From Amoebophrya sp. A120 (lineage: Eukaryota; Protista; Dinoflagellata): a DNA stretch of 64,000 bases. Positions 6,151 through 53,643 of this stretch are shown here, in pieces. The notes below the pieces were generated by a model. The model saw only the letters and a list, made by a program, of their open reading frames with translations, had not been told where the DNA came from and did not search any database. Position 1 is the first letter of the stretch, and each line of letters begins with the position of its first letter. Where the stretch lies: contig CAJINV010000004.1 in assembly GCA_905178155.1 (NCBI GenBank), positions 7,563,820-7,627,819 on the forward strand, read 5' to 3'. The position numbers and the translations under genes are program-made.

Positions 6151-9100
6151 TTACAGCTCCTTCTTCATGTGCCGCTCCTTCAGAAAGATTCCGGCATCGG
6201 TGTCGAGCTTCAAGGTCACCGGACCGAGCCGGAGCACCGTTTTCCAGAAGACGACGAACAAGCGAAAAAACGGCATGTAGAAGGGCTGGAACAGCAACAC
6301 ACCCGTGAAGTACGGCGCCGATTTGCACCACGGGGACCCCGCAAACCGGAAGCCCAGAAACGACGCAAGCCAGTCGACATCCACCTCTATCAAATGCAAA
6401 AATGTCTGGGTCGGGAAGAGTCATGCTGCTTTTGCATGACGCGTAAGGTCTGGCATGGAAGCTGTAGCATCACAGATTTCGAGAAGCTTCCGCAATGCCG
6501 AATTCCGCAATGCCACATTTTGGTGACAGAAAGTGGGCAGCTTTTGCTGCCTATGCATGAGAGATTTTTATGTGTTGTGAAATGCGCATCACAAGTTCGC
6601 ATTCCTCCAGACCCAGACATATTTGCAGTTGATAACCTCGTAGCCGTCCTTGAACAGGTCGAAGTGGTAGTCCTCCAGATTCGCTGGCACGCCGCCGCAG
6701 GAAATTGTATCAAACGCAAATATGTCTGGGTCTGGAAGAATGCAAGTTTGTCATGCTTGTTTCACATGACTCTGAAATCTGTCATGTTGGGAGACTAAGG
6801 GCAGGGCGTCCCTGTTTAAAATCAAGACTACAAACTTAAGCCGCGTACTCGGTAAACTCTAAGGTACAAACTTGAACAGCGCGATTTCTATCGAGAGACA
6901 GCAACAGAAACTCCTGGGACGGCTGGGACGTGAGTTTTGTTGATATCTAGGTAGAAATAGCACTGTGCAAATTTCGTATCCTAGCACCGAGGGAACCAAA
7001 ATAAAAAGTAAAAAAGGAGTGAAGCGAAACACTATGACACAGCCCCATCTACATCAAAAAACCATCCTAGAAGCTGGTAGCTCGAATTCTAGCAAGACAG
7101 GAAAAAGTCTTGAAGAGGAGTTGCGATCGTAGCACCAACATCCAAGTCCAAGGACTAACATGCAAATGGCCAGGTAAACCTCGAGGTCGGTATGACATGC
7201 ATGACAAACTATGACGACCAGGATAATGTGCTACGAGACCAGAGGAGAGCATGACCAAACCGAGAAACCGCATGACAAGAGAGGGCCACGTTGCAACCAA
7301 TTCGAGAACCAGGATGGAAACATGAGTGCGAAAAACCCCTAGGAAAAAACTAAAGAGTAACTAGTATATAAATAAGTAGCGCGCGTAGTAAAACTAGACC
7401 GGTCAAACCACTTCTGCCTGTACCGTCTCTATTCTTTTTTCCCTTGCCACCCTAAGAAGTGGCACAACAATGCTAATCATACAAGAGCGATTTGATCATG
7501 GCGTGCAAGAACAGGCGCACGTGCCTAGTTTTCATTCCCAAAAGGCAAGAGCCTCTGCATACAAAATGCCAGAAACATCGGTCAAAATACAAACAAGATC
7601 GGACGACGCCGATGAAACCGAAGTGACTCTGAAATCTGTCATGCAAATTACCCAAGACCCCCATTTTGCTGTCATGCAGAAACGCAGTTTGTCATGCAGA
7701 ATAGGCAACACCTAGAAGCTCACAAACTTGTCATGCTGAGCCAGCACTTGTGGTCTCCTCATGATACGCCACCCAGCATCACAAGTTTCCAGACCCAGAC
7801 ATTTTTGCAGTTGATAAATTGGAATCAAGTACAAGATCGCAAGCTTGGCGGACCACATCAGAAGGCAGTGCATGGGCATCATGTAGGCATAGAGCAACCC
7901 CTTGCGGTGCGCGTCGGCGTCTTTCAGGGTCAGACCCTCGATTCGCACCGGGTAGTAGGTGCCGCGCAACTTCTTCAAAAACCGCAGGTACAGCGCCCAG
8001 CCCGCGTCGGCCCACTTGTCCGCGAGGTAACCGGTTACCGGGAAGCGGAAGTCGACCCAGTCGAAGGAGTAGTATCAAGTGCAAAAATGTCTGGGTCTGG
8101 AAATTTGTGATGCTAAAATATGAGTGGTGGGCGCACTGCAATACGCAGTCAAGCATGACAAATTTTTGAGCTGCTCTTGTGTTTCCTTTTCCGCATGGCA
8201 AACTGCGTTTCTGCATGACAGACAAGAGGCCCTTTTCCTGATCCTGCATCACAGATTTATGAGTCATGCCAGACACGCATGACAAACTTGCATTCTTCCA
8301 CTTCCAGACCCAGACATATTTGCATTTGATAAGTAGTGAATCGTTTCGATTCGGTCGGCGTGGTGCTCCTCCTTGTGCTTCTTGCGGTCCGCGAAGCCGA
8401 AGAGTTCCAGTGTCTGGTAGAACCACTTGGCGCCGACAAACCGGGCGCTCCACGGGTTCCAGGAGGTGAAGGCGAGGGTGTTGGTGTGGTACCACTCGTG
8501 CACCCGCACGTCCTATGCATTGCAAAAGTATCGCACTCGTATGCAGGCATTACAAATTTCCCCAGCATGAGAATTGAAATTTGTACTGCGGATTTACCTT
8601 AAGAAAAAGATTTGTAATGCATGACTGCAAGACGAGTACGATGCTTTTGCACAGGATACGTCCATCCACACGACGACGTTCCAGATCAGCGCGAACATCG
8701 GGTCCCAGCAGTTGATATGAAATGCAAAGATGTCTGGGTCTGGAAGAATGCAAGATTTGTCATGCATATTTCTCATGACACATGATGCCTGTAATGCATG
8801 ACCCAGCACCGCAGACTACTTTTAGAGGGCTTTCTGATGCGCCTTCCGCATGAGGAATGCCCTGTCCGCGTAGCACAAACTGGAGCCCTCTTGCTGGTCA
8901 TGCAAGAATACAAATTTCTTTAGAATCCAAAAACACCATGACAAGTTGCATCCTTCCAGACCCAGACATATTTGCAATGCATAATTGACGAAGATCAGCA
9001 TGTTCAGCGCCCACAGCATGGTCGGCTGGTGGATGACCACACGGTACACGTGCGGCGTGCGGGAGTACATGCTATGGAACAAGTGTCAGAATGGAAATTC

Positions 9101-10134: not shown

Positions 10135-10837
10135 TTTTTTGTTTTCTGTTTTCACTTTCCGTCGTCAGAGGCAAAAATATTAAAAATCAACTAGAGACAA
10201 ACGAAAAGGCCGTAACTACGACTAGCGCGAGCGATCTTCTGGAACTATGCAGCAATAGAAACTATGTCACACGTCGGCGTTTCGGTCCTGGGTGGAAGAA
10301 TGTTGGACAGAAAGTGCAAGACAAATTTACACTTCCGCCACCCCCGTGGGCGATCTCCAACAAATGAAAAAGATGAGTCTCGATCAAAAACCATACTGAT
10401 ACTACTTCAACAGGCCAACATAGATGAAAAAAAAACATTCCCAAAAAAAGAAAAACGACGCGACAATAGTAGAGTCCACGAATAGGAATACGATTCGGAA
10501 ATAAATTAGAAAAAAATAGTACCGACTGAGAACAACGAGAATATCAGAAAGAACTTGTAGTACTAGGGTTCACAGAAGAAAAATCTTCTAGGGATACCGA
10601 ATAAGAGATAGACGGACACACTCATCAGAGCGAGTTCTAAAGCGATCATGAAAAAAAACTGATCCCTGAACAACACGACATAGGCACAGCGAAACTGCAA
10701 TTCCTTTTCATTACATGCACCTTGACCATGCATGATATCGACAGCGCAGATGCACCGCAAGTCGAAGTGTAGGGGCCAGGCGCCGAATTTTTGCAAAAAA
10801 ATCCCTCGGGGCGAGTGACTTTAACCCGTTTAATTAT

Positions 10838-12583
10838 TCAGCTCTGCGCAAACATGACCATTTCCGGCATTGCCTTTTCTAAAATGTCTGCCTCCTTGTG
10901 CGCGATGTTTTCATTTGGGACGTCCAGAGGGTGTTGCTCTACAAACAGCATCTTCCCGATCAAATTTCCGCCGTTGTACCGGTCCGGCGGCGCTCCCTCG
11001 TCGAAGAGCGACAACTCGTACCAGTGCGGCGGGTCCGATTTCGGCGGACAAATTTGCAAAAAATCCTGCTGCGCACCCCCAACCCGGGCTTTCGCCATCC
11101 GCCCGAGAAAAGGAATCTTTTCCGACCACTGCAAGATCGACGCGGAGGTCTTCGCCCCACCGAAAATGTCGTTTTGCAGCAAATCGAAGAATTCGCTGCT
11201 ACCCGCGACCGCTTATCAACTGCAAATATCTCTGGGTCTGGAGTGGAAGTTTGTCATGCTTGTCTCTCATGGCTCCGAACTCTGTGATGCATGAGCAGGA
11301 TGAGAGTCGCTTGTCTGTCATGCAAAAGCGCAGTTTGCCATGCAGAACTCACAACAGACAGCAGCTCAAGAACTTGTCATGCTTGGCTGCGTATTGCAAT
11401 GTGTCCACCATTCCCAAGCCAGCATCACAAGTTTCCAGACCCAGACATATCTGCAGTGGATACTGCTCCGTCCTTCGCAGTTTCGTCGTCTACTTTGTGG
11501 TATGCAGTGCAAAAGTATCGTACTAGTAGAAATCGCATTACAAATTCGGTCAGCATGACAAATGAAATTTGTCATGCGGTTTTACCTTGGTATGGAGATT
11601 TGTCATGCATGACTGCGATTACTACGAGTACGATGCTTTTGCAATGCATATGTGGAAATCGTAGACCACGTCCCAGTGCACCTTCCCGGTGGTTTTATCA
11701 ACAAACTTCGCGTGGATGTTTTCCACCTTCTTACTCAAGTCGATCCGCGGCCGTTTGTCGATGTTCCCGGTCAAAAAAGACGCGGTCGGGGGCATCGGGT
11801 GGCCGGCGGCTCTGTCGCAGATGAAGTTCTTGTTAAATTCCCCCTTGTCGTCAATGAAGTTGGTCGCGACGATATCCAAGGAAAAAACTGTGTTAGTGTA
11901 ACTATCTTTGGCTGACAGCATTACAAATTTGCAGCTCTACATGACAGAGAAAACCTCTCATGCGTGGCTTGTAAGGGAAAACACACACGAAGAGAGGACT
12001 TCATGGCTGTCTAGCATGACAGGTGTAACTCTGTTGCATGTTCAGTTCTGCATCACAGATTTACACTTACACAGTTTTTTTCTCGCATAGACGATGTTGG
12101 GGGACTGGTAGGCGACGGTGACTTTCAGATCGTGTTTGTACGCTTTGTGATAGTTGTTGGTTTGCAGGTCCAGGAGTTTCCGCCCCTCGTCGATGAAAAA
12201 CTCCTGGTATGGATTGTAAAAATGTCTGGGTCTGGAAGGTTGGAACTTGCATTGTAATGCTAGCTTTCCATACCTAGAGCTAGAAAATCTGTATTGCATA
12301 ACCAACAAAAGTCGCAGCCTCTTTTGTCATGCAAAAACGCAGTTTCTCATGCGCATTGCCTATGAGAAACCGTTTCGGGAAGTTGTCATGCCGGACTGCA
12401 ACATTCGGAAATGTTTTCATCATGCACATTTTAGCATCACAAGTTTCCAGACCCAGACATTTTTGCATTTCATACCTGGTTCTTCATCGCCGCGCTGGCG
12501 ACGTGATCCGTGATCCCCTTGACCGCGGTGTTCAGCGGGGCAGGAAACCCCGCCGCGAGAGCAGTGCCGACGGCGCCTGACAT
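10838..12583 (-). CDS. Hypothetical protein (~280 aa), 5 exons
   Basis: MSGAVGTALAAGF...; four introners removed give an 843-nt continuous ORF ending at stop 10838. Confidence 0.75.
11214..11462. mobile_element. Introner family A (249 bp)
   Basis: TIRs; DR ccgct/ctgct; join KDGA|VAGS. Confidence 0.88.
11501..11650. mobile_element. Introner family B (150 bp)
   Basis: TIRs; DR tgtgg; join YDFH|KVDD. Confidence 0.9.
11873..12089. mobile_element. Introner family E (217 bp)
   Basis: TAT..AAAAAACTGT TIR; DR gacga; join PNIV|ATNF. Confidence 0.88.
12208..12474. mobile_element. Introner family A (267 bp)
   Basis: TIRs; DR cctgg; join MKNQ|EFFI; GT-AG register possible. Confidence 0.9.
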
Positions 12584-13465
12584 ATTTACTTTATGTTTAT
12601 CGGAAGTTTTTACGACAGTAAAAATTACTTTGAGTTTGAAAGCTGTATTCAAAAAACCTGGGGAATCTACCGTCCTCACTGCTGGCGCAGCAGCCCGCAG
12701 TGAAAAATAAGCACGCGCTAGTAGTACCCCTACCTTGATGCGTCAAAGCAGTTCAGTCGAGTGGATGGCGATCGACGTAGCTGATTCCTTGCGACAAGCA
12801 GCGATAATTTTGTTCGAAACCGATCGAAGCGACACGACAACAGAAACGAAGCAAATTTCATCCTCTCATCTCAGATATAGATATTGCGAAAAACGAAGCG
12901 AAATTGAAAATCGAAGTGTACGATCACAAACGCGCGAAAAGTCTACGAAAAACGATTTTTAACACTGACTCTGCTTCTCCCACAAGCGAAGTGGCATGTT
13001 GTCGAAGTAGCATGTCAAGTCGTCTGCGATGTACTAAAGGGTTTGTCGTCGTTTCGGTAGCAAAAGCGTATATTAGATACATCATACATACATTGCCGCT
13101 GTAATCTTGTCGTGTTGTTCGTCGACTGTATATTGTTCGGGAAAATCATGGTACTTAACTGGCTTGACACTACGTACTTCTACCAGGAAGTGAATTTACA
13201 GGCACTCCTACAAGGAGTCTGAATTGCAACAAAGTCGATTATCCCGATTTTCAATTTCAGGTGGGCGTCTGCATAACAGTAAAACAGGAACAAGTATAAC
13301 ACGATCAAGATCAATCTCAGGACGCGAGTCCGACAAAAAGGTATGTCAAATTGAAATGACAAAAAAAAACAATATCGTCCAGCAAAATAAATAAGCTCGT
13401 TGAATTTCAAATAGGCCGCAAACCAAGAAACCAAATTTCATGACCACAAACCTGTCAAATAATTC

Positions 13466-15850: not shown

Positions 15851-18800
15851 CTAAATATGCACCGGCATGCACCCTTCGCCGTAGTAGACAAATGGTACAT
15901 TGCCAATCTCCGCGGCGGTTTCCCCAAAGAAGCTGTTACTTATGATCAGTGCCGTCGCACGGGACAAGCCTATGTACTCGGTCCAGGCGCGATGGTAGCC
16001 CGCTTGAGACATCCCAGCGGTTCGGTCCACGTGCTGGATGGCTGCCGTTGATGTTGAAGACCCTGTGTTTCTAGTTGGACTCGTCGCGCTACTGCCACTA
16101 CTACTATCTGCTACTGCAACGAACTCGTTCTCCACAAAGCTGGCGACTTTCCCGGCTTGCACTAAGGCCTGGACTTCCTCGGTGACCCAGAACTGCTCGG
16201 AGTCGGCAGAAAAGTACCAGGGCGTGGATGATTCCAAAATCTCCGCCTGGACTAGTTTGTCCTCCACTTGGACGGCGCATTCCAAAAACGAGGTTATCGT
16301 CGTCAACCCGTGCCGGGGTGGGTCTTTGAAGGAGTGCAGCGTTTCGTTCCCCGCGCGGAAGTGCAAACCGAGAAAGCTTTTCTTCGCCCCGAACTTACTC
16401 AACGGGTACAGCACTTTCGCGTGCGGCTTGAACAAAATGTTCCAGACCTGCGCGACCCAGCCGGAGGTGAAGGCGAAAAAGCCGTAATTATGCACTGCAA
16501 TAGTATTGTACTCGTATAAATGCATTACAAATTTGCTCAGCAACATGAGAAATAAAATTTGTAATGCTAATTTACCTCAAGGAAAGGATTTGTAATGCAT
16601 GATTTCCATACGAGTACGATACTTTTGCACTTGATAGTAATCCTCCTGCAGCCAATCGTGGATCAAGGCGTGGTATGCGGTGCAAATATGTCTGGGTCTG
16701 GAAACTTGTGATGCAAGGAACGGAATAGTGAAAACAAAACACTGTAATGCGCTGCCCAGCATGATAAGTTTTCCCGTGGTTCAGAGTTGCGTACTCGGCA
16801 TGAGAAACTGCGTTTCTGCATGACAGGCAAGACGAGCTCTTCGCGGCCACGCAATACAGAGCTCAGAGTCATGCCAGACTAGCATGACAAATCTCGCAAT
16901 CTCCCAGACCCAGACATATTTGCAGTGCATACGTGGAAGCGGAGGTTCGTCCCGATCACGAGCACCTCGGGGGACACGCGGAGGCCGCGGAGTGTGCGGT
17001 CGACCTGGTGCTCGGAGAGGTCGACCAGTTGCACTCGGTTGTTGAGTGGTAAATCTTCTATCCGGACCCGCCAATCGAGAAAGGAGGGTAACAGCACCTC
17101 TAACAACGGCCGTGGGTGTCGGATGTCGATGAGGAATCCTCTGTGCGTCGCGACGGCGAGCAGAAACAGGGACAGGATCCCGTGCAGCCGATCTCCGTGT
17201 CCGCCGCACATGGGCAGCCCATAGCACGCGGCGACGATCGCGCCTTTCAGGTTGCTTGGCTGCCCGGACCGCCACTTTCGGTGCTGCTGGATGTAGTCCG
17301 CCATGATTTGCTTGAACAAATCGGTTATAAATTGAAAAAGTAACGTGCTCGTATAAATCCATTACAAATTTTCTCAGCATGAGAAATAAAATTTGTAATG
17401 CGGATATACCTTGAGAAAAAGATCTGTAATGCATGATTGCAATACGAGTACGATACTTTTGCACAGGATATCGGTGCTTCTTTGCCGGTGGGACAAGCCC
17501 GCGAAGAGCTTCGTCTCTTCACTCGTACTATGCATTGCAAATATGTCTCGTGGGTCTGGAAACTTGTGTTGCTGGTACTCGCATCGCAAAGTAGCCAGTT
17601 GTGCAGCGTGACAGCATCACAAGTTCTTTTCCTCCGCTGTTTGCGGATTCATTCGTACTTAAACTTAGCATTACAAACTGCCTCTTCTCAGCACGCCAAA
17701 AAAATTGGCCATCAATCCCATTTATGCATTACAGATCTTGTTGTCCTTGAAGTTCTGCATCACAAATTATCCAGCCCCAGGCACATTTGAATTGCATACG
17801 TGCGCAGCCCGATGGAAGAAACTCCCTGGTCAAAGTGTAGGTTGGGAAGATCGGACGCTTCGGGGTACCGGAGCCACCGACAAGAAACTGTAAGTAGTGA
17901 TTTTTTTGATTTTCTTTTCGTCTTCCAATGGACGCATGGCGATAGCAAAGGTAAATCAAAATCAATACACATACTCCGCTCGTCTGTGCATGAGAACAAC
18001 TTTCGCGTCAAATATCATAGTGTACTACCTGTAGTATTCGGCTTCAAATTATTGATCAAATCGTGGTCAAAAAACGTTCCACAGAGATCCGGCCCCTGCC
18101 TGGTGTACTGCTTCCGCCTCGCATATTCGATAAAAGTATGACCTGCAAAAGTATCGCACTCGTATAATTAAATGCATTACAAATTGAAATTTCCTCAGCA
18201 TGTGCATGGGAGATAAAATTTGTAATGCATGACTGCAATACGAGTACGATACTTTTGCACAAGATAAAAAGTCACTGGCTGCAACGTTTTCGCCGCCACC
18301 GCCGCGCCGGCGAACTCAGTACTGGCTGAAGCCTCCGTCTCTCCGTCTTCAGATATTAAAGCAGCACTCGCCGTTTCGTTGCTTGCGGTATCTTCTATTT
18401 CACTGTCTGCTTCCATTTCTACTGCGGGACCACGAGCTGCCGACGGCCTGGTGACTTCTATGATGGTTTCCTGCACAATTTGCGCGATCTTGTTCGGGCT
18501 CAGCTCGTCGAGCGTGGATTCCGTCGGGAAAACCACCACCCGCCCGGGAATTTCGTGCTGGGCCTCCACTTTCTCTTGCGGGGGACGGATGGCGGACAGC
18601 TCGGGGACCCTGTTTGGGATAGAAGAAAAGGGAGTATAGTACGTGCATCACATAAGCGCTATGTATTTGTGATAGAAAAGGGACAACTTCTACGTCCAAT
18701 AATAAAGTGCCTGAAGTTCATGTTCCATCACTTCAGTGCAGACCGATAGTGGTCCTGCAGTTTTTCTTCTTGTGGCAGACGCAGATCACAATAAACTATT

Positions 18801-38200: not shown

Positions 38201-41200
38201 AGAAGTCGGCGAGGTGTTTCTCAGGATGTTGCTCGAGGACGTGTTCTTGCTGTTGTCTTTTTTAATATTCTTTCCACTTCTACTAATCTCTTCTACTGCG
38301 TGATTCTGATTTTTCATCCCTGCTGCGGCATTAGTCATCTCATCGTGGTTAATTATATTCGCCGTGGTTTCCGCTATCGTGGACGGAATGCGCATGATGT
38401 TGTTCCGCTTGCTGTTCACGTCCATTTTGGACAGCAATTTGCTTCGCGCATACGTACTCGCGGTGCTGCCACTGCTTGGATTTTGCACGGACATCTCCTG
38501 CAGCTGCCGCACGGCGTGCTGAATATCGCCCAGATTTTTACTACTCTCCCGGTAATTAATATCGCGGCCGAAATTCTTACCGGGAGGACTGTTCGGCTGG
38601 GACAGGTACTGCTCCTCAGCCGAATACTCCGCTTCTTTCTGCAGATTCCTGCCGGCGTCGGTGAAAAAGTACTGCTCGCCCGCACTCGCCGAGGGCTGAA
38701 ACGGTATTTGCGCGTCGTCCGAGAGTTGGGAAATCTCCGTCAGCAACTGCCGGGTGGTGCGGGTTTCTAGTGTTTGCAGAGCCTCGCCCTCCATTTTTGT
38801 CATCCTCGTCGTGTTTGATAATAAATTGGGCACCTGTAGTTGTTGTATTCTTTCTTCTGCGGCAAGAACCGCAAAAGGAGCTGCAACAGCAGCACGGCTG
38901 CCAATCTCGGCCGCGTAGGTCGTGATGTTGCTCGATGAAAATGCATTTGATACTATCTTCCCTATAGTCGCCGCGCCGGCCACCGCCACCTCCCCCCGCG
39001 GGCCACAGTCCAACGTCTTTTGCTGCAGCTGCGCGCCCGGGGTCAGCGCTTTCTCCGCGGCCTTGTACTGGTTCCAAGTCGCGCTGGCGCCTTTCGAGTT
39101 GTTCTTGCGGGGACTGTTTTTATTTCCCTCCTCGTCATTCATCTGAAGTAGATTCGGGTACACCGAGGGCTCCAAGTTACGGCTTTATCAAATGCAAAAA
39201 TGTCTGGGTCTGGAAGGTGGCAACTTGTCATGGTAAATCTGACTGAATCATGGAAAAATCTGTGTTGCATGACTACCAAGAGCTGTCCACTTTTGACCGA
39301 GATAGGATGGAGTTTCTCATGCAGGATGGGCATGGCAGAGACCTCGCGGAGTCTGTCATGCCAAGTCCCGCATTCCAGACCCCATGGGTCATCGAAAATC
39401 TGCATGACAAGTTTACACTTTTCCAGACCCAGACATTTTTGCACTTGATAGGCTCTCCTGTGCGGATATTTCCTTTACCGGCGGCCGGGGGGAGTGGAGT
39501 AACAATTTGCGGCCCGTGTGGTCATTATCTGCACCAGCGCCTGCTGCTTCCTTGGACCGTCGCTGGAAATTATTATACTCGGGTGGTGGCGGCGTCGTTC
39601 TCCCGCGCGGGGGTGTAGCGGGGCAGCTCAGAGACCGTGGCGTGGAAAGAACTCCGGTGAGATTATTGTTGTCGAAAACCCCGCCGGGCGTGCCGAATTG
39701 GTAGGGTCGGCTGAAAAGATCCAAGCGTGCGGCTTGTGCCGGGGAAGGTTTCTTGCTCGGGAGTTTGTCGGCCGTGGGACTGTTCAACATGCTAGGTGTC
39801 CTCGAGGTCCCGGGGTTAGGAGAGTGGAGAAGTTGTGGAGTTGGCTTTATTTGTTCCGCCACCACCAGCTGCCCTTTGCTGTTCCTCGGACTGCTCGTGA
39901 TCTCTGAGGGCGGCGGTGTCGTACGCTGTCGTGGGGTCGTCGTCGTGGGGCCAGCACTGCTCGTGTAATTGTTGTTCGCCAGATCTTGTTTTAGCAAGTT
40001 CTGTCCACCGCTCAATCGCCGTGGCGTGGAGAATCCCCCAGCAGTGATAAATGCAGACGTGCTTTGCAACTTGGGCTGTTGCTGATCGAAATTTTTATCC
40101 ATCTTTAACATTTTCACTCCAGTAGAATTGTTCAAGGCTGTATTTGTTGTTGGGCTTCTTGGTGGGGCCGACGTCGCGGTGTTCTTGACTTGACTTGTGT
40201 CCAGGAAGAAGGTCTGTAAATCCTTCTCCAACGCGTTGATTTTATCCGATAGAGATTCCAAAGACGGCTGGGGTAGGGGTGGTGTCGATGTAGCTCTTGG
40301 GGCTTGATGAAATCCACTCTCCACTGCTGGAAGAGAAATAAACGCAAGCTGCGGCTGCACTTGCTCCCCCTCACTGAAAAACTTCATCGGCGGGCCCTGC
40401 TGTGCCTGATGTTTATTATGTACTACACCACTTGCGGCAGCACCTCCACCTCCTTGACTGGACGTAATTCCTCGTAGTTCGGAGACTTCTCTACTCCGCT
40501 GGCTTTTTTCCCGTGCTGCCGCAGCCGCCATCGACATGGAGGTGGCATTGGCAGCAAACGCGAAGACCGCGGCGTCGGTGACGTTCGGGTCCTGGATGTT
40601 GATGCGGGCGCGCTTCAGACTATCTGTCGACAGCGACTTCCGGGGATCATTTTCATTTTGCAGTAAAATGTCGTTCCTGCTGTACTTCGTGTTGTTGTTC
40701 TTCCCTTCAGCTCCTGCGCTATCGTCGTTCTCCTCAGTGCTGCTATCGTCACTGGCTTCTTCCGAGTCAAACAAGTGCGCCATGCTGTTTTCATTTTCAC
40801 CATTCTGCGACAGGTGGTTTCTAATCGCGGAGCCGAATAGGGAGCTGCTGTTGTTCTGCGAACTACTTCTTTCCTTGTTCTGGAGAAACACACTGGCACG
40901 GTCCACGGCGCTTTGCAACACGGCAAAAGTCTGCTCGCTTTCTTCGTCGTCTTGCTCCTGGTGGCTACCTGTGTTCACCACCAGAACATCATCATGATCC
41001 CCAGCGCTCCTGTTCTGCTTGCCCTCGGCAAAATGGTCCGACATCCTCAGAGTACTGCCCGTCATGGCGCTGCGCATATTAAAGAACGGGGAGGAGTGCA
41101 AGAACCCCGGTGTTGAAGATCCCCCTGGTGCAGCTCCTCCTGCCGGGCTGTTTGTACCCATTCCACTTAACAGCCCGGCCTGCTGCAATCGCTTCTGTTG

Positions 41201-44200
41201 CATCGCGTCTGCTGGGGAAGAGGACGACGGCGTGATCTTGTTGTTCCCCGCAGAGTTTATTACGTCCCCCCCCGCCGGCGGCGCGGCGACGGGATCGCTC
41301 TGGTCGTGCTGTCCTGGTTGCTGCAAAAGACCTGAGCCCGACTGCAGTTCTCGTCCTGTATCAAAAGAGGTATTCGACCGCAAGAGCCCATACCGGTTGT
41401 CTTCCTGCCTCATGAACCGCGGACTGGGCTCGCTCTTTTCCCGCTCGCGGAGCTTCACCAAGGTTAACGCCGCCTTCATGTCACCCGCACCCGCGGAGAT
41501 GTTGAAGATCCTTTCCAAAACGTCCGCATTTTCAAGCTGTCCCGAGACCGCGTAGTCATCGACATTTGCATTCGATGTTGTGGACTGCATCGACATGGTA
41601 CTATCACGCATCAACTGCCGCGAAGAGGAGTGCCTGTCTTGAGGTGCTAGTCCACCCTTGTTGCGAAATGCCAACAGCCCAGATGAATCACTGTGCGAAA
41701 AGCTGTTTGGGCCGTTTTTCGGAAGTAGGCCTCCCGCTGGCGTGGTCGTTCCTTTGCTGTTTGCCGGAGTAGACACGATGTCCACAACTCGCGGGGCGGC
41801 TTTGTTGCCACCACTTTCGCTTGCTCTACTTGGCAAAAGATTTTTATCTTCTTGTGCATCTCTAGCGCCTACTGCGTTTTCCACGGGCGCCGCTGAACCG
41901 GAGGAGTCCACCATGATCTCCCCCAAGTCGTTCAAACGCAGGGATCCGCGTATGGATGTGTCAGAGTTGAAATCGACAAAGTTGAGATAATTTGCCATGC
42001 ATAAAATGGATGCCAGTTGGAGCCGAGTTTCTAAGTGGCGCATGACAAATTTCGGCGGTCCCGAAATGCAGTTTGTCATGCTGTTTAGGCAAAGAAGAGT
42101 GATTTTCTTATGCTACTTTAGCAGCTCGAGCTGTAACCCCAAACAGGCTTACAATCGGCCTCACTTGCCTGCTCTGCAACACACGTGCCTCGGGTCATGC
42201 ATTTTATGCATTACAGATTATTTCAACTTTGACGATTTCAAGCCTGACGCTTCCATACCACGCTGGTGGAAAACACTACCTGTTGTTCCGGACGGAGACA
42301 CAGGAGTAATTCCAGCTGTACCAGCGATCCCGCTGCCATTGGTCAGCGATTTTCGCAGTGACGAAGAAGATGCTCCTGTTTGTTGTTGTTGTTGTTGTTC
42401 GAGCCCGCCGGACAACAAACTCGGACTGCTGCCCCCGGCGGACACCAAACTTCCGCCCGGAGCAGGTACAACTACCCCAGCACCACCGACGTCTTTCGTT
42501 TTCGTCCGGCTACTTGTAGTGCTGTCCTTTTGATTTTGCAACTTTTCCGACTCTTTTTTCTTTTCCGCGTCCTTCTCGATGGTCTGGTTCACCACTTCAT
42601 CGACCCCGCAACACGTGGCGCCGATGTTGGCGTGCTATGCATTGCAAATATGTCTGGGTCTGGAAACTTGTCATGCTAAAATGTGCATGATGGCAACACT
42701 TCCGAATGCAGACCAGCATGACAACTTTCCGGAGCACTTTCTCATAGGCAGCCCGCATGAGAAACTGCGTTTTTGCATGACAAAAATGGCTGCGGCTTTT
42801 GTCGGTTATGCAATACAGATTTCCCAGGAGTGTAAAGCTAGCATTACAAGTTATAACTTTCCAGACCCAGACATTTTTGCAGTCCATACGTCCACCTCCT
42901 CGACGATCTGGGCCGCGGCCATGGAGCTTTCCTCAGCGAGTAATGCATTTAACTCGTTCATGGGGTCTCTCGCCTGCGGGATGTTCATCACTCCCAGCTG
43001 CTCCAATCGGTACCTCACATCTGTCTCGTTCGCGTCCCCGAGCACCGACTCCCGCTCCGTCCGCAAGCAGGTCTGGCGGAAATGCTGCCGGGAATTCGGG
43101 ACGTTGGTCACTTCGTTGTTGTTGATCCTGCCGCAGATCTCCTCCGCCAGCTTCGCCACCCGGTTCTTTTGCAGATACGGCGCGAGACCCGACAACCCCA
43201 GCCACTCCAACTTCTTCTCCAACGGGAAGGACGACTGCCGCACGGAGTTCCGCGCGACCTCGCACACGTCAATCGTATCAAAAGGAAAAATCCCTCCTCG
43301 TCCCCATATCGAAAACGAAATTTGTGATGTTTACATGAGTACACAAATCGACTTGTAATGCTAGAAGGCCAAGAGACGCAGCTGTGGCCTCGTTTGCAGG
43401 CAATTGATCATGCTGTTTCCACTTCCACCAGCTGCCCCCTGTCATGGTGAAGATGCAAGGCTTCATCTCCACGCCAACCAGCACTACAGTCCGCATCTTT
43501 TCCCTTCTGGCATGACAAAGCTGATTTGTGGCCACAAATCTGCATCACAAATTTCTAGTTTGAGTATGGGGTGGGGGCATTTTTCATTTTGATAAATCGG
43601 CGACAGCCGCCAGTAGGTCCGGGCGACCGCGTACTCCTCTAACAAAGGCTCCCGCGTGTTGTGAAACATGACCGGGTCGTCGGTGGATAAGGTCACGTTC
43701 AAACCGCGTTTGAAAAAGGAGAAAAACGGGTTCTTCGCGTACTCCAGAAACAGCGCGTTGTTCGACTGCGGGGAGACGGAAATCCCGATTTGCGCCAGAT
43801 AATACACGTACTGCATCACGGGGGAGTGGTGCAGTCGGATCCCGTGGGCGATCGTATCCGCGAGCAGAAACCCCACGTCCAAATTCAGCAGGTCGCCCGC
43901 CTCCCCGCAGTGCGGCCGGTAGTGGAACTGGTTCAGACCGAGTTTCTCCCGGAGTAGATTCAACACCCGGATGTTCGCGTAGATAAAGTAGCTGTAGTAG
44001 GCGTAGGGTGGATTCGCGTTCTCGAAGCTCCAGTACCCCGGTTCCGTGACCAACCGGTTCCGCCTGTCTTCCGCGACCGCGGTCTGCAGCGCCACCGTGT
44101 CTTCCTGGGACTCGTCATCCACGGTGTCAAAGGCGCCGACGTGGGTTATGGGATTCTCAAATGTTACATTCTCAACTGTAGTTACATGATTTGTCATGCA

Positions 44201-47055
44201 GAAGCGCTATCATGCTTCGCACGCTCAAGCTTCTTCGCATGACAAGTTTTCGACTCGCTAAGTGGCATGCTATACCGTGCAATTATGCAAGGTTCCAATG
44301 CAAGACGCGCAAGGTTCCCCGTTTCACTTTTGGTGTTCTTGCATCACAAATTCATGTACCAGTTCAGAATGTAACGTTTGAGAACGCCATATGGGTCAAG
44401 AACTCCGCGAGGTCCGGATGCTTTTCGGGAAACAGGGTCGCTTCGAAGAGCGGGAGGAAAAGGTTGGAAAGCCACTGCTGGAAGTTTTTCACGATGTTCA
44501 ATTTCCGGTACAATTGGAACAGCCGCGGAAATTGGATCATCCACCGATTCTTCTCCGAAAGCAAAGGCTTCCGCTGGTCTATCAAACGCAAAAATCCCCC
44601 CTCCCCATATCGAAATGGAAATCTGTGATGCAGGATTTGAGGCACCAAATCGACTTGTCATGCTAGAAGGCCAAGAGCCGCCGTCGTGGTCTCGTTTGCA
44701 GGCAATTTGTCATGCTGTTTCCCACTCTCAGCTGCCTCCTATCATGCTGAAGATGCAAGGCTCCCCCACGCCACCCAGCACTACAGTCCGCATCTTTTCC
44801 CGTGTAGCATGACAAAGCTGATTTGTGACAACAAATCTGCATCACAGATTTCCGTTTTGATATGGGGAGGGGGGATTTTTCCTCTCAATATGGTCGGAGG
44901 GAAGGTTGAAGGACAAAGCGCGCGGAGCGTCGGTGGCGGATGGATGGGCAGTTATTGCAGTGAAAAGTGCCCCCCACCCCTGAAAGTGCAAAATTTGTGA
45001 TGCGAAGTTTCCAAATGAAAACTTTCTGTCATGCATGGAAGGAGTATGGATATTTCTGATGCAGAGTCTAGGCGTGTATCGCATCGCCTGCATGACAAGC
45101 GCCGCTCTTGCTGGGGCCTTTTGCAATACAAATTTTTGCTATTCACGATTGAAAACCTGTGATGCTGATAGATGCAAGAGCGCGAATGTTTCATTTGGAA
45201 AGGTTTGCAATACAAATGCTTTCAAGTTCGGGGGTGGGGGCATTTTTCATTGTAATAGCAGTTGTGTCGGATTTTGACGGCGCGACGGTTTGCGGACGAG
45301 CCTGTGTAGTTGCGGACGCAATGAGATTGCATATTTGGATTTCATCTCTGTAACAAATGTCTCGAACTCTTACTCTATCTGTTACGCTTACGGTTACGGA
45401 TCATTGTTGCATGACACATGTATTATCGCCGCGCTCTCAAATGAAATGGCTTGTAGTCGTTTTGTTTCATCGCATCACTACCATGTATAGTACATGTTCG
45501 TTCTCACGCACTTATTTCAACAAAACTTTCTATGCAAAGCACTGCAAATCCTACCTCTCCCCCCGCGTTTCCCCTTTGCAGCACCCATTGCGACAGCTTG
45601 GTCCACTCGTCGGGCGATTTACCGTAGATGCTCAACCGCCACTCCGTGTGGCACCATTCCCGCCTTTCCAGCCCGTTCAGCAGCTCCCTGGTCAGCTCCG
45701 CCAGGTACCGCCCGCCCATCTGGTTGTCGGTTTTCAAAAACACTTCCCGAAACGCGGATTTCCCGAGAGGCGAAAATCGGGAATTAAAAATGTCGAACCG
45801 GGACATAACCCGGTGGTCCGCCTGCATTTCGAACGCGTCCAGGTTCAGTGCGGACTCTTCCACTTCTAGTTTGTCGCAAAAGTCCTGCAAGGTCTGGCAT
45901 TCGACATTGTTATCTTGATTTTCTTCTTTACTCGCTGTGCTGCTATTCTTCTTTTTCACCGTGTAGGAAACTACGTCGTTTTTGTTGTGAATGAATTTCT
46001 TCCTAATGAACTCAAACAAATGCGAGCTGCACATCGCCGCGCTGTGGTGGATGTGGTTGTCCACCTTCACAATGTGGTTGAAATCGACCCCGTTGTTCTT
46101 GTTCTCGGTCGTTTCATCGACGTAGTGGAGCATCCTGTAGAGTTCAAACTTCTTTTCCAACAGCTTCAGCCGGCAGTGCGAATAGGACCTGGTCGGGCCG
46201 TCGGTGCGCAGATGGGCGACGCGGGACAGATCCGTGTAGAACTCCTCCAAAGTCGGGACCTGCTTGGAAAAAAGCGAATTCGGGTCCTTCCTGCTGGTGC
46301 TGCTCCGCTCGCGCTTTCGCGAAGTAGTGGTCGACGCCGTCGGGGAAGTGTGGTCGTGACTAGTATGTTCAACACCTTGAACTTGTGAGCCACTTCTTGA
46401 TTTTCTACCAGCATCACCTAAAGGTCGCGGTCCCGCCGCATTTGTTGTTGTACTAGCTGTTGGTTCTCCTATCGTGTTGTTTTCGGAGCTCGAATTGTCA
46501 CTGGCGGAGGTTCTCGCTTGCGCTTGTTTGTTGTTGTTCGACGTCCGGGTAAAAATACTACTACTTCCTGGAGATGATCCATGTTGTGCTCCATCGACGT
46601 TCCTCGGCGGTGAAGAAGTAGAGGTCAAAACGTTGTACACTGTCACCACTCCGGACTCATCCATGTAGTAGCTGAGCGGCTGCTTTTTGTTCAAGTTCCG
46701 CGCCTGCTGCTTTTCGAGGTTTTTACCCAAAAAACTCCGGCCGCATATGGCGCTCTCAAACGTTACATCCTCAACTGTTACATGAGTTTGTAATGCAAGA
46801 GTAGTAAAAGCCAAAGGAGGGAGGTTGCGCCTCTAGCATTACAAATTCCGCACAGATTTAGCTGCTGTTTAGCCCTTCGCAAATTTGTCATGCGAAGCAG
46901 CTTGATCGTGTGGATCTTGATGGTAGTTTAGCATGACAAATCCATGTAACACTTGAGAATGTAACGTTTGAGAACGCCATACCGCAGGGAGCGTACTTGG
47001 AGCGCAGCTCCAGCAGCTCGCGCAGGTTGCCGCGGACCACGGGGATTTCGTCCAT
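35229..47055 (-). CDS. AMPD: AMP deaminase with a very long low-complexity C-terminal extension (~2,770 aa; 5' end may extend further)
   Basis: KVDNHIHHSAAM, FDIFNSRFSP, EWRLSIYG, FDTVDDES, YRPHCGEAG, LSTDDPVMFH.TREPLLEEY, DVCEVARNSV. 12 introners and 1 GT-AG intron removed give an 8319-nt ORF. Confidence 0.9.
35512..35767. mobile_element. Introner family A (256 bp)
   Basis: TIRs; DR actcg; join SRRE|SVAN. Confidence 0.9.
36721..36983. mobile_element. Introner family A (263 bp)
   Basis: TIRs; DR ccgca; join DYSA|EQKR. Confidence 0.9.
37428..37599. mobile_element. Introner family B, degenerate (172 bp)
   Basis: TIRs; DR agcga; join KNIA|VHDR. Confidence 0.85.
37731..37993. mobile_element. 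Introner family A (263 bp)
   Basis: TIRs; DR cagac; join PHSL|QISN. Confidence 0.9.
39186..39450. mobile_element. Introner family A (265 bp)
   Basis: TIRs; DR ggctt/ggctc; join AQES|RNLE. Confidence 0.88.
41951..42257. mobile_element. Introner family F (307 bp)
   Basis: TATGGA.G.GTCAG TIR; DR ccgcg/ccacg; join HQRG|SLRL. Confidence 0.85.
42636..42888. mobile_element. Introner family A (253 bp)
   Basis: TIRs; DR cgtgc/cgtcc; join EEVD|ANIG. Confidence 0.87.
43276..43594. mobile_element. Introner family C (319 bp)
   Basis: TAT..AAAAAT(C/G)CCCC TIR; DR aatcg; join WRLSPI|DVCEVARNS restores a conserved AMPD motif. Confidence 0.9.
44147..44391. mobile_element. Introner family D (245 bp)
   Basis: TIRs; DR tgggt; join FLTH|VGAFDTVDDE. 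Confidence 0.9.
44580..44890. mobile_element. Introner family C (311 bp)
   Basis: AAAAATCCCCCCTCCCCATATC TIR; DR tggtc; join LPSD|QRKP. Confidence 0.9.
44953..45257. mobile_element. Introner family C variant (305 bp)
   Basis: TATT.CA.TGAAAA.TGCCCCC TIR; DR gcagt; join DTTA|HPSA. Confidence 0.87.
45302..45554 (-). other. Canonical GT-AG intron
   Basis: GAG|gtagg...cacag|GCT, phase 0; frame restored. Confidence 0.7.
46746..46981. mobile_element. Introner family D (236 bp)
   Basis: TIRs; DR ccgca; join YAPCG|RSFL. Confidence 0.9.
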
Positions 47056-48511: not shown

Positions 48512-51500
48512 TTATTTCAGCAGGAGGCCAACTCCCTCGTTAGTGCCGTCCCACCTCGCTTCCTCTTTCTCAGTTCTGTTCCCCCACTTGTAGGTGTTTC
48601 CGTACTGATCGGTCGGATAGGCGTGAATCCGTACCTGCGAGAAGGTATTCGAGACAGTGTTGTAAAAAAGCCGGACGTGAAAAGACACCCTCTCCAGCGT
48701 CGCCCGTGGCGCTTTTGTGCGAAAGGGAGAAGCGTCAAAAAATGTCACTCCTTCGTCGACCGCCTCCTGCTGCAACTCGTCACTCTGCTCTCGTAGAGCC
48801 TCTATGCATTGCAAATATGTCTGGGTCTGGAAGTTTGGAACTTGTGATGCTAACTTTGGATTCTAAAAAAATCTGTATTGCATGACGAGCAAGAGGAGCC
48901 CAGTTTGTGCTACGCGGGGAGGGTATTTGTCATGACGGATAGGCATCAGGAAGGCCTCTAAAAATGCGTGATGCTAGAGCATGCATCACAGACATCATGG
49001 GTCATGCAAAATATGCATGACAAACCTTCCATTCATCCAGACCCAGACATTTTTGCATTTGATAGCCTCGCTGGGCTTGACATACCGTGTCTTCCAAATG
49101 AACTGCAGAACCAAGGTATCGTCTGTTAGTGACGACAACCTGTCGCCGTTCGTCATGACAATTCTTCGCGGAGGGTTAGCGCCGCGGCCCGGCGTTTTGT
49201 TTTCTTCCAATGCTGCTGCGCCGTAGAACGTCCGCGTGTGGTCCGGGTCTTGCAGGTCCACACTCTTCAAAAATTTCCGCAGCACGACACGGGATACCAC
49301 GTTGAAATACAGGTTTTCTCCGGCAACTAACTCTTTGTCGAGGCCATACATCTTCCCGTTGCGCAAGCTTTGCAGGTCGAAGGATTTTTCACCTGCTTCT
49401 GTGGAACTACAGGCACTTCTTCCGCTCCTTCCGCTGCCCGGGTTGAGGCAGCGTTGTAGCATTTTTCCATCCGCCGGACGTCGCGCTTCTCTCGCTTCGC
49501 GGGCTTCTATTTCTTCCTTCTTTTTTTTCTCAAATTCTTCTTTTTTTTCCTCTGCAGTTTTACACCGTGCGTCGTCGAGGTCAAAGCTTAACAAACTGAA
49601 TTTCGAAGACACCGCCCACGGCGGTATGTCTTCCCCGTGCCGCCGCAAATATCGTGCGGCCGCCGAGCCAAGGTCAAGCACGGATACTTTCGCCTGTGGT
49701 GCGTAAATTGGAACCTCCTTCCCGACGCTTTTTCTTCCACTTGATCTGCTCTCCGCCTCCTTTATCACCTCTGCGTGCAGCAGCCGCTCCGTCACCATGC
49801 CAGTGAAGTCGAACTTTTTCATCAGCTCTTGCAGATTCTTACGCAGCTTTTCCGCGCGTTCGGGGTCCGTCCGAGGTAAGGGTTTGCTCTGGTCCGTCAG
49901 AGGTGAGCGTTTGTAATAGGCGACTGTCGCATATTCCGGCGGGACATATTTGGCTTTGTCCAACAAAATTCGCTCCAGCTCTCCCGGCCCGCTCGGCGGA
50001 GCTGGAAACTTGTTTTCATCTTCGCCGGGGCTGAAAATTTTTGACAACCACCTCCTGCTGACATCAGATATATTCATATTGTATAACTCGGGATCCTATG
50101 AACTGCAAAAGTATCGTACTCGTATAAATGCACTACAAGTTTCCTCAGCATGAGAAAGAAAATTTGTAATGCTGATTTATTACCTTAAGAGAAATATTTG
50201 TAGTGCATGACTGCGATAATTACTACGAGTACGATACTTTTGCACAGGATAGATCCCTCCCCGTTCGCAGGGTTTCGATCCAGCGGGCCCAATACGACCG
50301 CTTCTTCTCTTCTATGGATTGCAAAAATGTCCGGGTCTGGAAAGAATGGGATTTGTGATGCTACCTGTCGACGATAGAAAAATCTGTATTGCATGAGCAG
50401 CAAAAGCTGCTTGAATTTGTGCCACCCGGAAAGGGCATTTCTCATGCAGAATAGGCATTACCAAGGCTTTGCGAGAACTGTGATGCTACGGCATGCATCA
50501 CAGGCATCTTGGGTCATGTACAATTGTGCATGACAAACTCCCCGAATCTTCCAGACCCAGACACTTTTGCATTTGATATCTTCTTCCTCGCTACAACTTG
50601 TTGGCCGCGCACCACGGAAAAGAGAACTGATAGTACAGCTGGATGAAATAGTATCCCACGAAAAAACTGTTTCACTGTGGTGATTTTGCAAAATCTGCAT
50701 CACAAATTTGTTACGCATGACACTGAAAATCTGTCATGCGGGGCTCCTACGGGAAAACACAGCTAGAGATCCATTGTCTTGCATGTGTAGCATGACACAC
50801 GCTTCTGCGATCCATTTTCTGCATCACAAGTTCACAGTGAAACAGTTTTTTCTTGCGATAAATAGCAGAGGACCTGCTCGTGGTCATGGCGCGGACATGA
50901 AATAAATGTATCGCAAGGAAAAATCCCCCCTCCCCATATTGAAGAGGTAGGTTTTCGAAAATTTGTGTTGCTGATTTGAGGTCACAAATCACGTCTGTGT
51001 TGCAAGAAGACAAGGGCAGCAGCTTCCGTCCCATTATGGAGGCGGTTTGTCATGCTGTTGTGCCAACATCACGGACGCTTCTCATGCTAAGCGCCTAAGT
51101 CAAAGCATCTCTGCTCAGGCTTGATATGGGTCTGCAGTCCTCTCTAGCAAGACAGATGTGATTTGTGTACTCAAATACAGCAACACAAATTCCGCTTTCC
51201 ATATGGGGAGGGGGGATTTTTCCTCCCAGTAAAATGTTGAGAATCCTCCCCCTGCCCCTGCACAGAGGACGATGTTGAGCTTCCCATTGTAATTGTATCC
51301 TTCTCCGCCGGAGGTTGAAAAAATTCTTGGTAGAAGTAGTTCTCGAACTCCTGCAGCGCTTTGGTAAAATCTTGCACTTTTTCGTACTTTATGACTTTCT
51401 TCACAGCTGGCTCCTTTCCTTGCTCTCCTGCCTGTTTGGTCGTGTTCGAAACCAGCGCGAAATTCAGACGGAGGTAAAAGTCACGAGCACGGACACTGGA

Positions 51501-53643
51501 GTATGTAGTATTGAATACTACATCGAGATCTTCGGAATAATTTTTGTAAAAATTCCGCATCTGCTGTGCCCGCAAGAGAGGCCGCAACCTCTCCCACATT
51601 TGCGCCGCCTGCTTGTTGTGTTTTTCGTCCGGGGTGGGATCGTGTTTCAGCCTCTCTAGAGCAAGTTGTGCGTGGACCACGTCTACATACTGGCCGATCG
51701 TCCTGGACAGGTGCGATGAAGAATTTGTATTCAGTGCAAATATGTTATTTAGGTCTGGAAGGATACAACTTGTGGTCGTGCTACCTTTGGACGGTACATA
51801 AAATCTGTATTGCATAGATAGCAAAAGAGGTCCAGTTTTTTATACGTCGCGGAGAGGGCATTTCTCATGCGGTATGAGCATCAGAAAGCCCACCTCGCAG
51901 AATCTGTGATGATGCTAGTACTAGGGCATGCATCACAGACATCATGGGTCAATGTCATGGAAAATATGCATGACAAATAACCTGGCATCTTTCCAGACCC
52001 AGTAGATCGATAGTTGCAACGCGTATGCCGGCTTCAGTCGTTCCTCGATTCGTTGTTCCTCGATTGTCCGATATTGAACAAAAAAAGCACGTAGGTGTAA
52101 CTTTGTCGTGATGCGCAACATGCAAGATGATTGCCTCTGTCATGCTGGACATGCATGACAGGTCCCAGCATTCAAGTGCCTTTTCACGTGCTATGATCTG
52201 CGCATGACAGGTTTATTTTGCTGTAATTATGCTGTTCCGCCAAATCCAAAGAAGTTACACCTACAACAATGTTTTTTCTTCACATATTCGACCACCGTCA
52301 CGAACCTGAAGGTCGTGCAAAGCAACGTCCTCCAGAAGAACCGTACTGAGCTTCTCATGCGGCTGAATTTTTATCACGACAGGAGGCTGCAGCTCCGGGT
52401 CTTGTTCGGGGGAGGTGCCGATAATTTTCTCCTTCGCGGGGGAAAATTTCCTCCGGGTCGACGTTTTTAGAAGTTTACGTTTTACTACTTTTACTTCCGC
52501 TCGACCACGTTTTACTACTTTCCTCCGGGTCGACGTTTTACCACTTTCCCGCTTTCCTCCGGGTCGACGTTTATTTACTGCGTCTACTTCCGCTTGCAGA
52601 TGCCAGTTCCAGGGGTCTGCTTCGAAGTTCTTAGGGAGATCTTCTCCTGCGACAACTTTCCGCCACAGCAGATGCCGTTGGTACAGCTGAAACGCATCCA
52701 TGTTCACCAGGTCCTTGAGTTTAATTAGCAGATGCGGGTACTTCCTAGCTCTCCTCGTCGTCGTCCCAAGCGGTTCTTGTGACTTTTGCCCTGTGAGCAC
52801 CTTCTTGTTTGAGGACATCTTCAACCCAGAAGGCGCAGCTGTTCTTCGTTCCCTTGTGTCCTCAATCACCACCTCCACGACGGTGTCGTTGTCCAGCGGC
52901 GCAGCGTCGCGGGCCGCCAGGGAGTTAGTAAGCGTTGACTGTTCCACTTCGGTAGTAGAGGGGTCATAACCTTCCCCGCCGCGCGGAATAGGATTAAGAT
53001 CGACTGATATAATCGGCCTTTGTGCCCTCGACGAAGATGTTGAACTCGGTTCCTCAATCCAGGGAGGACTAGGACTTCCCCGTTTTTCGTCGACGTCGTC
53101 GTGGATAGTTTTTGCGACGAGTGCACGCCCTTCATCTCCACGACCCGGAGTAGGAGAGCTCCAAAGTAGACCTCCAGACAACTGCTGGCAGGGGCCGTCT
53201 TGGTCTTCGTCATCATCGTCGCTGCTCGATGAATACGAAAAATGCGAAGGAGCCGACGACGACCCAAGCCCCGAGCCTCGACTAGTGGAGCCAACTACAC
53301 TGGAAACGAGTGGTCTACAACTTCTTCCCGAATAAGCTACATCGTCACCCCTGCTTCGTACATCAGAGGAGGAGCCCTCAGAAGCATAATCGTGAGTAAA
53401 AAACACGGTCGGTCCCCGGGCCGCCACCGCACGTCTCCAGTTCCCTTCGGTAAATTCCCAGACAACGTGCTCGGCATCGTAGGCATCTTTCACGACAGAG
53501 CGAGACCCAGCGACGCGCACAAGTCCCGCTTCGCTGAAGAGAATCACACCGGTGCAGCAACTGATGAAGATTCCTGCCGCAGCTCGCCAGCCACGCTTAG
53601 CAGGCAACGAGAATGAAAGGCGAAGGCAACGTCGGCAGAACAT
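48512..53643 (-). CDS. Hypothetical protein with N-terminal hydrophobic segment (~1,122 aa), 8 exons
   Basis: Seven introners removed give a 3369-nt continuous ORF from ATG 53643 to TAA 48512; no family recognised. Confidence 0.7.
48803..49064. mobile_element. Introner family A (262 bp)
   Basis: TIRs; DR gcctc; join PSEA|LREQ; GC-AG register possible. Confidence 0.9.
50097..50251. mobile_element. Introner family B (155 bp)
   Basis: TIRs; DR gatcc; join TGRD|PELY. Confidence 0.9.
50313..50578. mobile_element. Introner family A (266 bp)
   Basis: TIRs; DR tcttc; join SEEEE|KKRS. Confidence 0.88.
50652..50860. mobile_element. Introner family E (209 bp)
   Basis: GAAAAAACTGTTTCACTGTG TIR; DR aatag; join SSAI|SSSC. 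Confidence 0.88.
50909..51231. mobile_element. Introner family C (323 bp)
   Basis: TIRs, right end GTA; DR aaatg; join SQH|LFHV. Confidence 0.87.
51728..52025. mobile_element. Introner family A, degenerate, direct repeat lost (298 bp)
   Basis: Eroded TIRs; flanks atttg/tgccg; removing element +5 nt restores LKPA|SSSH. Confidence 0.7.
52072..52286. mobile_element. Introner family E, degenerate (215 bp)
   Basis: TAT..AAAAAA..GTAGGTGTAAC TIR; DR tccga/ttcga; join DGGR|TIEE. Confidence 0.8.

Follow-up and report, generated by a model that had tools for sequence, protein, structure and literature searches.

The window analysed here comprises 64,000 nucleotides of Amoebophrya sp. A120 (assembly GCA_905178155.1, contig CAJINV010000004.1, positions 7,563,820 to 7,627,819), in which genes are interrupted by short repeated elements with terminal inverted repeats (TIRs). 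Two families, A and B, comprise 28 of these elements (16 A and 12 B, from 6388 to 52025), non-coding inverted-repeat intron elements inserted in coding exons, nearly all with a 5-bp duplication, and they are members of the introner class described from Amoebophrya, a class that is itself already known. A previous sequence-only reading of the window had rightly recognized the 28 elements and their TIRs, while overlooking that they are introns of an already described kind. It focused on positions 4-7 of the tips (the outer ~15 bases at each end), four bases which differ between the two ends of nearly every element, and proposed, as one of three readings, that they might form a structural loop. 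We find that the tips of family A are decoupled from the interiors that they bound and that the two ends are independent at positions 4-7. The mismatch between ends is likely a by-product of exchange between copies, not a required splicing signal.

Introners of families A and B

At least 39 elements of the window start with TAT and end in its complement (two ends read TAC), nearly all with a 5-bp duplication; the end search gave 39 candidates in the window against 0-3 hits in shuffled controls. In families A and B, TA termini are present at 56/56 window ends and the 5-bp duplication is exact in 22/28 elements, has one mismatch in 5/28 and is unmatched in one (51728, with 4/5 bases mismatched), while a 6-bp target duplication was found in 0/28. 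GT-AG boundaries are possible in any register for 2/28 elements, and GT-AG, GC-AG or AT-AC boundaries for 4/28. With A120-type introners the elements share TAT followed by seven less-conserved bases and three A, the direct repeat, the non-canonical boundaries and the repeated family; with miniature inverted-repeat transposable elements they share short length, TIRs, a duplication of fixed length and insertion in both orientations. The features are listed below in window coordinates, with strand where one is assigned and positions 4-7 of the tips given as left/right.

6388..6634, family A introner, tips CAAA/CAAC, 5-bp duplication; missing from X3 record 9 by length arithmetic
6708..7816, family A introner of 1109 bp with internal insert, tips CAAA/CAAC; missing from X3 record 9
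8073..8331, family A, tips CAAG/CAAA
8514..8658, family B, tips GCAT/CCTG
8716..8983, family A, tips GAAA/GCAT; duplication with 1 mismatch
11214..11462, family A, tips CAAC/CCAC; duplication with 1 mismatch; missing from X3 record 13
11501..11650, family B, tips GCAG/GCAT; missing from X3 record 13
12208..12474, family A, tips GGAT/GAAA; missing from X3 record 13
16489..16636, family B, tips GCAC/CAAG (Y end with A-type tip)
16674..16931, family A, tips GCGG/GCAC
17326..17470, family B, tips AAAT/CCTG
17529..17798, family A, decayed, tips GCAT/GCAA; duplication with 1 mismatch
18137..18266, family B with internal deletion, tips GACC/CTTG
19049..19227, family B-like, divergent, tips GCAC/CCAC
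19520..19668, family B, tips GAAC/CCTG
19713..19886, family B-like, tips GGAT/CAAA, both A-type
20024..20183, family B, reverse orientation, tips CCTG/GAAA
26327..26487, family B, reverse orientation, tips GCAT/GAAC
35512..35767, family A, tips CAAT/CAAA
36721..36983, family A, tips CAAA/CAAC; element and 5 nt skipped in X4 record 9
37428..37599, family B, reverse orientation, tips GCAT/GCAG; element and 5 nt skipped in X4 record 9
37731..37993, family A, fully paired copy, tips GGAT/GGAT; 268 nt (263+5) skipped in X4 record 9; full terminal stem predicted
39186..39450, family A, tips CAAA/CAAG; duplication with 1 mismatch; element and 5 nt skipped in X4 record 9
42636..42888, family A, tips GCAT/GGAC; duplication with 1 mismatch
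48803..49064, family A, tips GCAT/CAAA
50097..50251, family B, tips GAAC/CCTG
50313..50578, family A, tips GGAT/CAAA
51728..52025, family A, decayed, tips TCAG/GCGT; right end TAC; no matching duplication
37734..37737, plus strand, example of tip positions 4-7 (positions 4, 5, 7, 10, 14 and 15 vary among copies; 16-28 form a conserved core)
35232..45400, minus strand, host reading frame of 2385 codons with an AMP deaminase segment, restored by removing 11 elements and 5 nt each

Removal of each element together with 5 nt restores long minus-strand frames, the 2385-codon frame among them. Every recognized host gene between positions 1 and 53700, including those for AMP deaminase and a Bin3-domain protein, lies on the minus strand, forming a co-oriented cluster. 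Together with 5 nt each, nine of the 28 are missing from what we call probable-RNA contigs (the RNA nature of the X3 and X4 runs is a guess), as is one element belonging to another family. One X4 contig has exact joints across 36721, 37428, 37731 and 39186, and two X3 contigs are shorter by lengths that match 6388, 6708, 11214, 11501, 11873 and 12208; X1 contigs, by contrast, read into elements. Raw RNA reads from X9 (all 748) fit only in part and gave no junction counts.

A pattern scan of metagenome contigs gave a larger copy set: 161 loci holding 240 distinct elements, of which 160 belong to family A and 29 to family B. Viral contigs gave 0 matches. This set was pre-filtered for a 5-bp duplication, and is uninformative on duplication length, and the fixed length of the variable segment is partly built into its search pattern. 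The duplicate locus L090 was dropped, and copies of at least 400 bp (including 6708) were left out of the tree and pair tests. Gene strand was inferred for 116 A and 29 B copies by a method that was correct for 38/39 window elements, and orientation relative to the gene was mixed (65 versus 51 and 11 versus 18).

Pairing between the two ends

A recount in the window confirmed that positions 4-7 are identical at both ends in 37731 only (1/28). Mismatches at these positions (59/112 bases) exceed those at positions 1-3 and 8-13 (10/252), as the sequence-only reading had anticipated, but they do not exceed random pairing: when window ends are re-paired at random, 61.7 mismatches and 1.9 full matches are expected, versus 59 and 1 seen (P 0.42 for full matches), so full pairing is not rarer than chance. 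The description of the ends as almost never fully paired goes too far: 11/28 window elements differ at a single base, and among short family-A copies from other loci 30/156 are fully paired, 27 of them with CAAA at both ends. The four bases keep a fixed length in the window, but they are not alike: of the 56 window ends, 47 have A at position 6 and 54 have C or G at position 4, while position 7 is uniform (0.01 bit). Only some tetramers recur in both families, CCTG and GAAC being confined to B in the window and CAAC to A. A left-right concordance at position 4 in the window (13/16) was not replicated in the larger set (76 versus 74.2) and was discarded.

Family B has a different history. None of its 29 copies from other loci is fully paired, against 5.7 expected. 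When copies are oriented by their interior, CCTG is found on the Y end in 26/41 and on the X end in 2/41; family B lacks paired copies because CCTG sits on one intrinsic end, and its mismatch is the inherited asymmetry of a founder with unequal ends. In copies L019:2316 and L092:102, CCTG is at the other end, which would fit an inversion of the interior between the tips.

Substrates of the tRNA-endonuclease and IRE1 type have a fixed loop or bulge geometry at their cut sites, and the mismatched tips could by analogy be an unpaired internal loop beside the junction, selected as an RNA signal for a non-spliceosomal nuclease. The scarcity of possible GT-AG boundaries, which calls for some non-standard recognition, and the predicted pairing of the stem from position 8 inward are both compatible with such a signal. 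Pooled family-A copies also match slightly less often than random, with position 7 under expectation in most tests. This apparent avoidance of pairing vanished within clusters, however: with subfamily and orientation held fixed (153/170 copies kept after dropping singleton and two-member clusters), family-A ends match at positions 4-7 in 27/153 copies versus 31.1 expected (P 0.17). RNA folding predicts no constant loop but a terminal geometry ranging, outside the stem, from fully closed to open, with predicted pairing of positions 1-3 between 0.35 and 0.93 by class and with every number of mismatches from 0 to 4 represented; the fixed geometry of the nuclease substrates is not found in A/B elements. 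Tips did not differ significantly between 5′ and 3′ intron ends (P 0.087; 116 A and 29 B copies), mismatches showed no excess of G-U on the sense strand (20 G-U versus 32 A-C), and a link to flanking or duplicated bases reached P<0.05 in 2/30 tests, none inside the duplication. Because fully paired copies occur and the paired 37731 is removed precisely, a loop requirement is unsupported; a required internal loop is unlikely, and selection for one as a nuclease signal appears extremely improbable.

Tips and interior ancestry

To relate tips to interiors in family A, 30 nt were trimmed from each end, copies were clustered with consistent orientation, and trees were built from interior columns only; the test was also run in a distance version. 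In a 78-copy cluster, tetramers at the two ends require 44 and 34 changes on the interior tree, versus 45.9 and 34.2 after shuffling, and in a 29-copy cluster 18 and 19 changes versus 17.4 and 20.7. Held-out interior control sites carried tree signal in 62/62 and 52/58 cases, respectively. Tip positions 4, 5, 7, 14 and 15 carry almost no interior-tree signal, whereas positions 29-45 from each end follow the interior for the most part, which puts the boundary of decoupling between positions 15 and 29; rare variants in the core at positions 16-28 were too few to narrow it.

Close relatives tell the same story. Among 30 disjoint close pairs with 7.6% interior divergence, position 4 differs in 21/60 ends, position 5 in 23/60 and position 7 in 30/60, and at least three of the four tip bases differ in 16/60 ends (P 9e-10 at 3x the interior rate). 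In one pair the interiors differ at 4 of 191 bases, yet CAAA faces GGAT at one end. Tips thus diverge among close relatives at 5-6x the interior rate and as three-base jumps, far above the decay after insertion of about 2-4% per site seen in duplications, core and conserved tip bases. The ends switch independently, with 17, 10 and 3 close pairs showing 0, 1 and 2 switched ends, and left and right tetramers are independent across the set (947 coincidences versus 916, P 0.28). The tips moreover form a small pool. Five variants make up 278/340 family-A ends (CAAA 141, GCAT 47, GGAT 34, CAAG 29 and CAAC 27), single-step intermediates are depleted (CAAT 3 versus 37.7 expected, GAAT 3 versus 20.5), and variants are linked across positions 4, 5, 7 and 14. 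In the 78-copy cluster, G-type tips occupy 38/78 left ends versus 13/78 right ends. Some tips also match those of the other family: 2 family-A ends bear the B-type CCTG, and several B ends bear A-type tips.

The suggestion in the sequence-only reading that ends are shuffled between elements is therefore supported in family A by interior trees and close pairs. At the X end of family B it receives support with less power, tree changes numbering 28 versus 27.5 shuffled with only 11/20 control sites significant. Whether tetramers follow the interior phylogeny, a check it had proposed, has two answers: they largely do not in family A, while the CCTG at the Y end of family B is inherited.

A simpler account would make positions 4-7 a spacer unread by the transposase, drifting by point mutation or else inherited with the subfamily. 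Several features suit a spacer, namely the fixed TAT-to-AAA spacing, the uniform position 7, the inherited B Y end, the recurrent tip pairs of smaller families and the published motif, whose positions 4-10 are already described as less conserved (PMC7789003). As a complete account of family A, it is nevertheless contradicted by the rate and three-base steps of tip change among close relatives and by discrete, linked variants without tree signal. Point mutation at relaxed sites cannot give three-base jumps at such a rate, and we therefore conclude that tips move between copies and regard the spacer as quite improbable.

Tips and interiors might also have been mis-joined, or polished from other copies, during assembly. 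Copy number is very high, and independent contigs mostly break within the core, so that phase is rarely confirmed. On the other hand, no two interiors are the same (similarity reaches 97.9% at most, one duplicate aside), and the uninformative core spans only about 13 nt. The pattern is present in window copies and in copies from other contigs, with duplications that match across elements, and single-copy contigs reach 57 nt into 11214 and 65 nt into 37428 without a difference. Assembly error is, on this evidence, a very improbable source of the pattern.

Probable exchange of tips between copies

We favor, with moderate confidence, a reading in which copies trade their outer ~15 bases by gap repair or gene conversion, each event affecting a single end and running through the conserved repeat core. 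A transposase would cut at or near the element ends, and the break would be refilled from another family member by pairing at core positions 16-28 or, rarely, across families at positions 8-14. Exact refilling may survive because a scar would shift the reading frame of a coding exon. Positions 4, 5 and 7 would be only loosely read by the transposase, so that every variant would stay functional; that positions 4-7 are free of transposase contact is a plausible reason why variants are tolerated. Exchange would be one-sided and mostly between like ends, and rarely across families. Left and right tips would then mismatch because the two are drawn from a mixed pool in family A, or descend from a founder with unequal ends in family B.

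Other routes were considered and set aside. A simple left-right swap inside the element is not the main route in family A, with a cross-end identity of 14 versus a same-end identity of 21 and the unordered pair kept in 5/30. Both tips staying together at a site was rejected as the sole route, the tetramer pairs being random. On inspection, a local palindrome origin could cover the GCAT variant only, and not GGAT or CCTG. Neighboring elements showed no excess of tip sharing in 36 pairs.

Several observations weigh against exchange by repair. Neither a transposase nor a cut site nor a repair intermediate was seen in this analysis, and the 1.1-kb copy (6708..7816) has no frame of more than 105 codons. 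For these introners, Farhat et al. (PMC7789003) report 97 pairs of identical elements; the putative transposases number only two, and both belong to the other strain. Among 280 elements compared, no site had the same flanks but a different interior, the one site in common being that of a duplicate with 99.5% identity. Tip-interior phase was confirmed in independent contigs for a few ends only, and every additional copy was drawn from contigs of a single accession series and picked by the family-A end pattern. Decoupling is also incomplete: close pairs retain some tip similarity (21 identical ends versus 15.9 expected), left positions 4 and 5 carry weak signal in the large cluster (P 0.057 and 0.033), and position 10 is partly linked to the interior. 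Position 14 (A or T) agrees between ends in 102/153 copies versus 75.9 expected while barely tracking the interior tree, which one-sided exchange does not explain, and the B Y end keeps CCTG although the core is common to both B ends.

Some of these points could be accommodated if the terminal ~15 bases were supplied by another molecule during mobilization, for instance through strand transfer while the excised intron is reverse-transcribed, or through exchange where the two ends meet in a circular intermediate. Such supply fits the decoupling in trees and close pairs equally, and the concordance at position 14 could reflect both ends being supplied jointly. The longer the interior branch, the more mismatches occur at conserved tip bases (rho 0.22, P 0.015), a trend that would fit a joint ageing of tip and interior after insertion, and one introner family of this organism group is described with an integrase-like coding sequence inside its TIRs (PMC12130899). 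Joint supply, however, predicts linked tetramers, whereas left and right are independent; identical element pairs are on record (PMC7789003), and no intermediate was observed. An X8 contig in which the first 127 nt of 37428 are unchanged from the first base weakly suggests a sibling that kept its tip. Supply during copying is for us the main rival, a possible but rather unlikely route. It is similarly doubtful that the tips are a separately inherited module from another molecule which records an intermediate, with a mode of spread that would be neither plain cut-and-paste nor known retrotransposition. Exchange by repair remains the reading that we carry forward.

Other elements in and near the two families

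Within element 6708-7816, positions 6767-7643 hold ~850 bp of extra sequence flanked by exact 20-nt direct repeats, like a nested insertion; the long element of L066 has a similar insert with a 13-nt repeat, and the two are 73% alike across 297 nt. Even so, a probable-RNA contig lacks the entire 1.1 kb of 6708-7816. At L094:301-796, a family A copy is enlarged by tandem repetition of an 11-nt A-rich unit. Family A interiors carry an 8-nt motif, GCAT-N-A/G-CA, about four times per copy in both orientations; it resembles the GCAT tip and is a candidate transposase binding site.

Eleven elements of at least five other families also have TAT ends and 5-bp duplications (11873, 26613, 33732, 41951, 43276, 44147, 44580, 44953, 46746, 50652 and 50909). 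Their variable segment covers positions 4-10, and the tips of 26613 are identical. The element at 9073-9393 has a 5-bp duplication but a left tip 3 nt longer than the right, an exception to the fixed spacing. Two more repeated elements (25867-26104 and 52070-52280) were missed by the end search and found through similarity to other loci. Between 58050 and 61150 lie tandem units with two TAT-type elements each, of another family, whose flanks are constant and not duplicated target sites; removing these elements restores no long frame.

Implications

Both the spread of introners and their splicing are treated as open in PMC7789003 and PMC12130899. Tips unlinked from interiors make the mechanism of spread accessible from sequence alone, through a comparison of shared sites in different strains that would separate refilling after excision from end supply during copying. 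Defining families by exact terminal-repeat identity, as in the published clustering rule, would split single lineages and may inflate the reported 1,954 families. For splicing, one candidate signal is removed, and attention shifts to the stem from position 8 inward and to the duplication.

Comparison with known systems

Introners of the A120 type are described as having TAT, seven less-conserved bases and three A, with a 3-5-nt direct repeat, non-canonical boundaries and a length of ~240 nt, in repeated families within co-oriented genes (Farhat et al. 2021, PMC7789003). The A/B elements agree in inverted repeat, direct repeat, boundaries, length, repeated families and location in co-oriented genes. 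In the passages of that report on the termini, positions 4-10 are merely less conserved, and discrete tips, independence of ends and decoupling do not appear there. Non-autonomous A120 introners listed as TIR DNA of unknown superfamily include families of ~150 and 250-260 bp with terminal repeats of ~25-70 bp (Gozashti et al. 2025, PMC12130899). Lengths and TIRs are alike, on a comparison of families by description and not by sequence, and terminal variation is not analysed in the sections describing these families. Our literature search, mostly outside subscription journals and excluding figures S19-S25 of Farhat et al. and two of the 14 supplementary files of PMC12130899, found no published report of tip-interior decoupling in these elements. 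Taken together, the shuffling of ends is supported and is the main result for this described class, and a never-paired signal is unsupported.

IS3EU/GingerRoot elements have TA...TA termini and a short target duplication without strong base preference, usually of 6 bp (PMC10045372, PMC6839031). The termini are common to the A/B elements, while the duplication is 5 bp here; given that difference in length, no assignment to IS3EU/GingerRoot was made. No autonomous copy that might carry the IS3/integrase-like transposase of that group was found. The ends of insertion sequences have terminal bases for cleavage and an inner block for binding, a division for which the literature search gave no supporting passage. 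The A/B ends show the same invariant triplet, variable spacer of fixed length and inner block, a likeness that would explain tolerance of tip variants but not their movement between lineages.

P elements duplicate 8 bp of their target. They are cut with a 17-nt stagger (PMC7776569), and gap repair can replace them or overwrite one of their ends with the other (PMC3887531). Their termini differ from those of the A/B elements, and the replacements described in these sources are laboratory events, compared with the family-wide shuffling seen here. Nonetheless, gap-repair replacement of this kind offers a route by which tip and interior could come from different copies, and the 17-nt stagger lies near the boundary at positions 15-28 found in family A.

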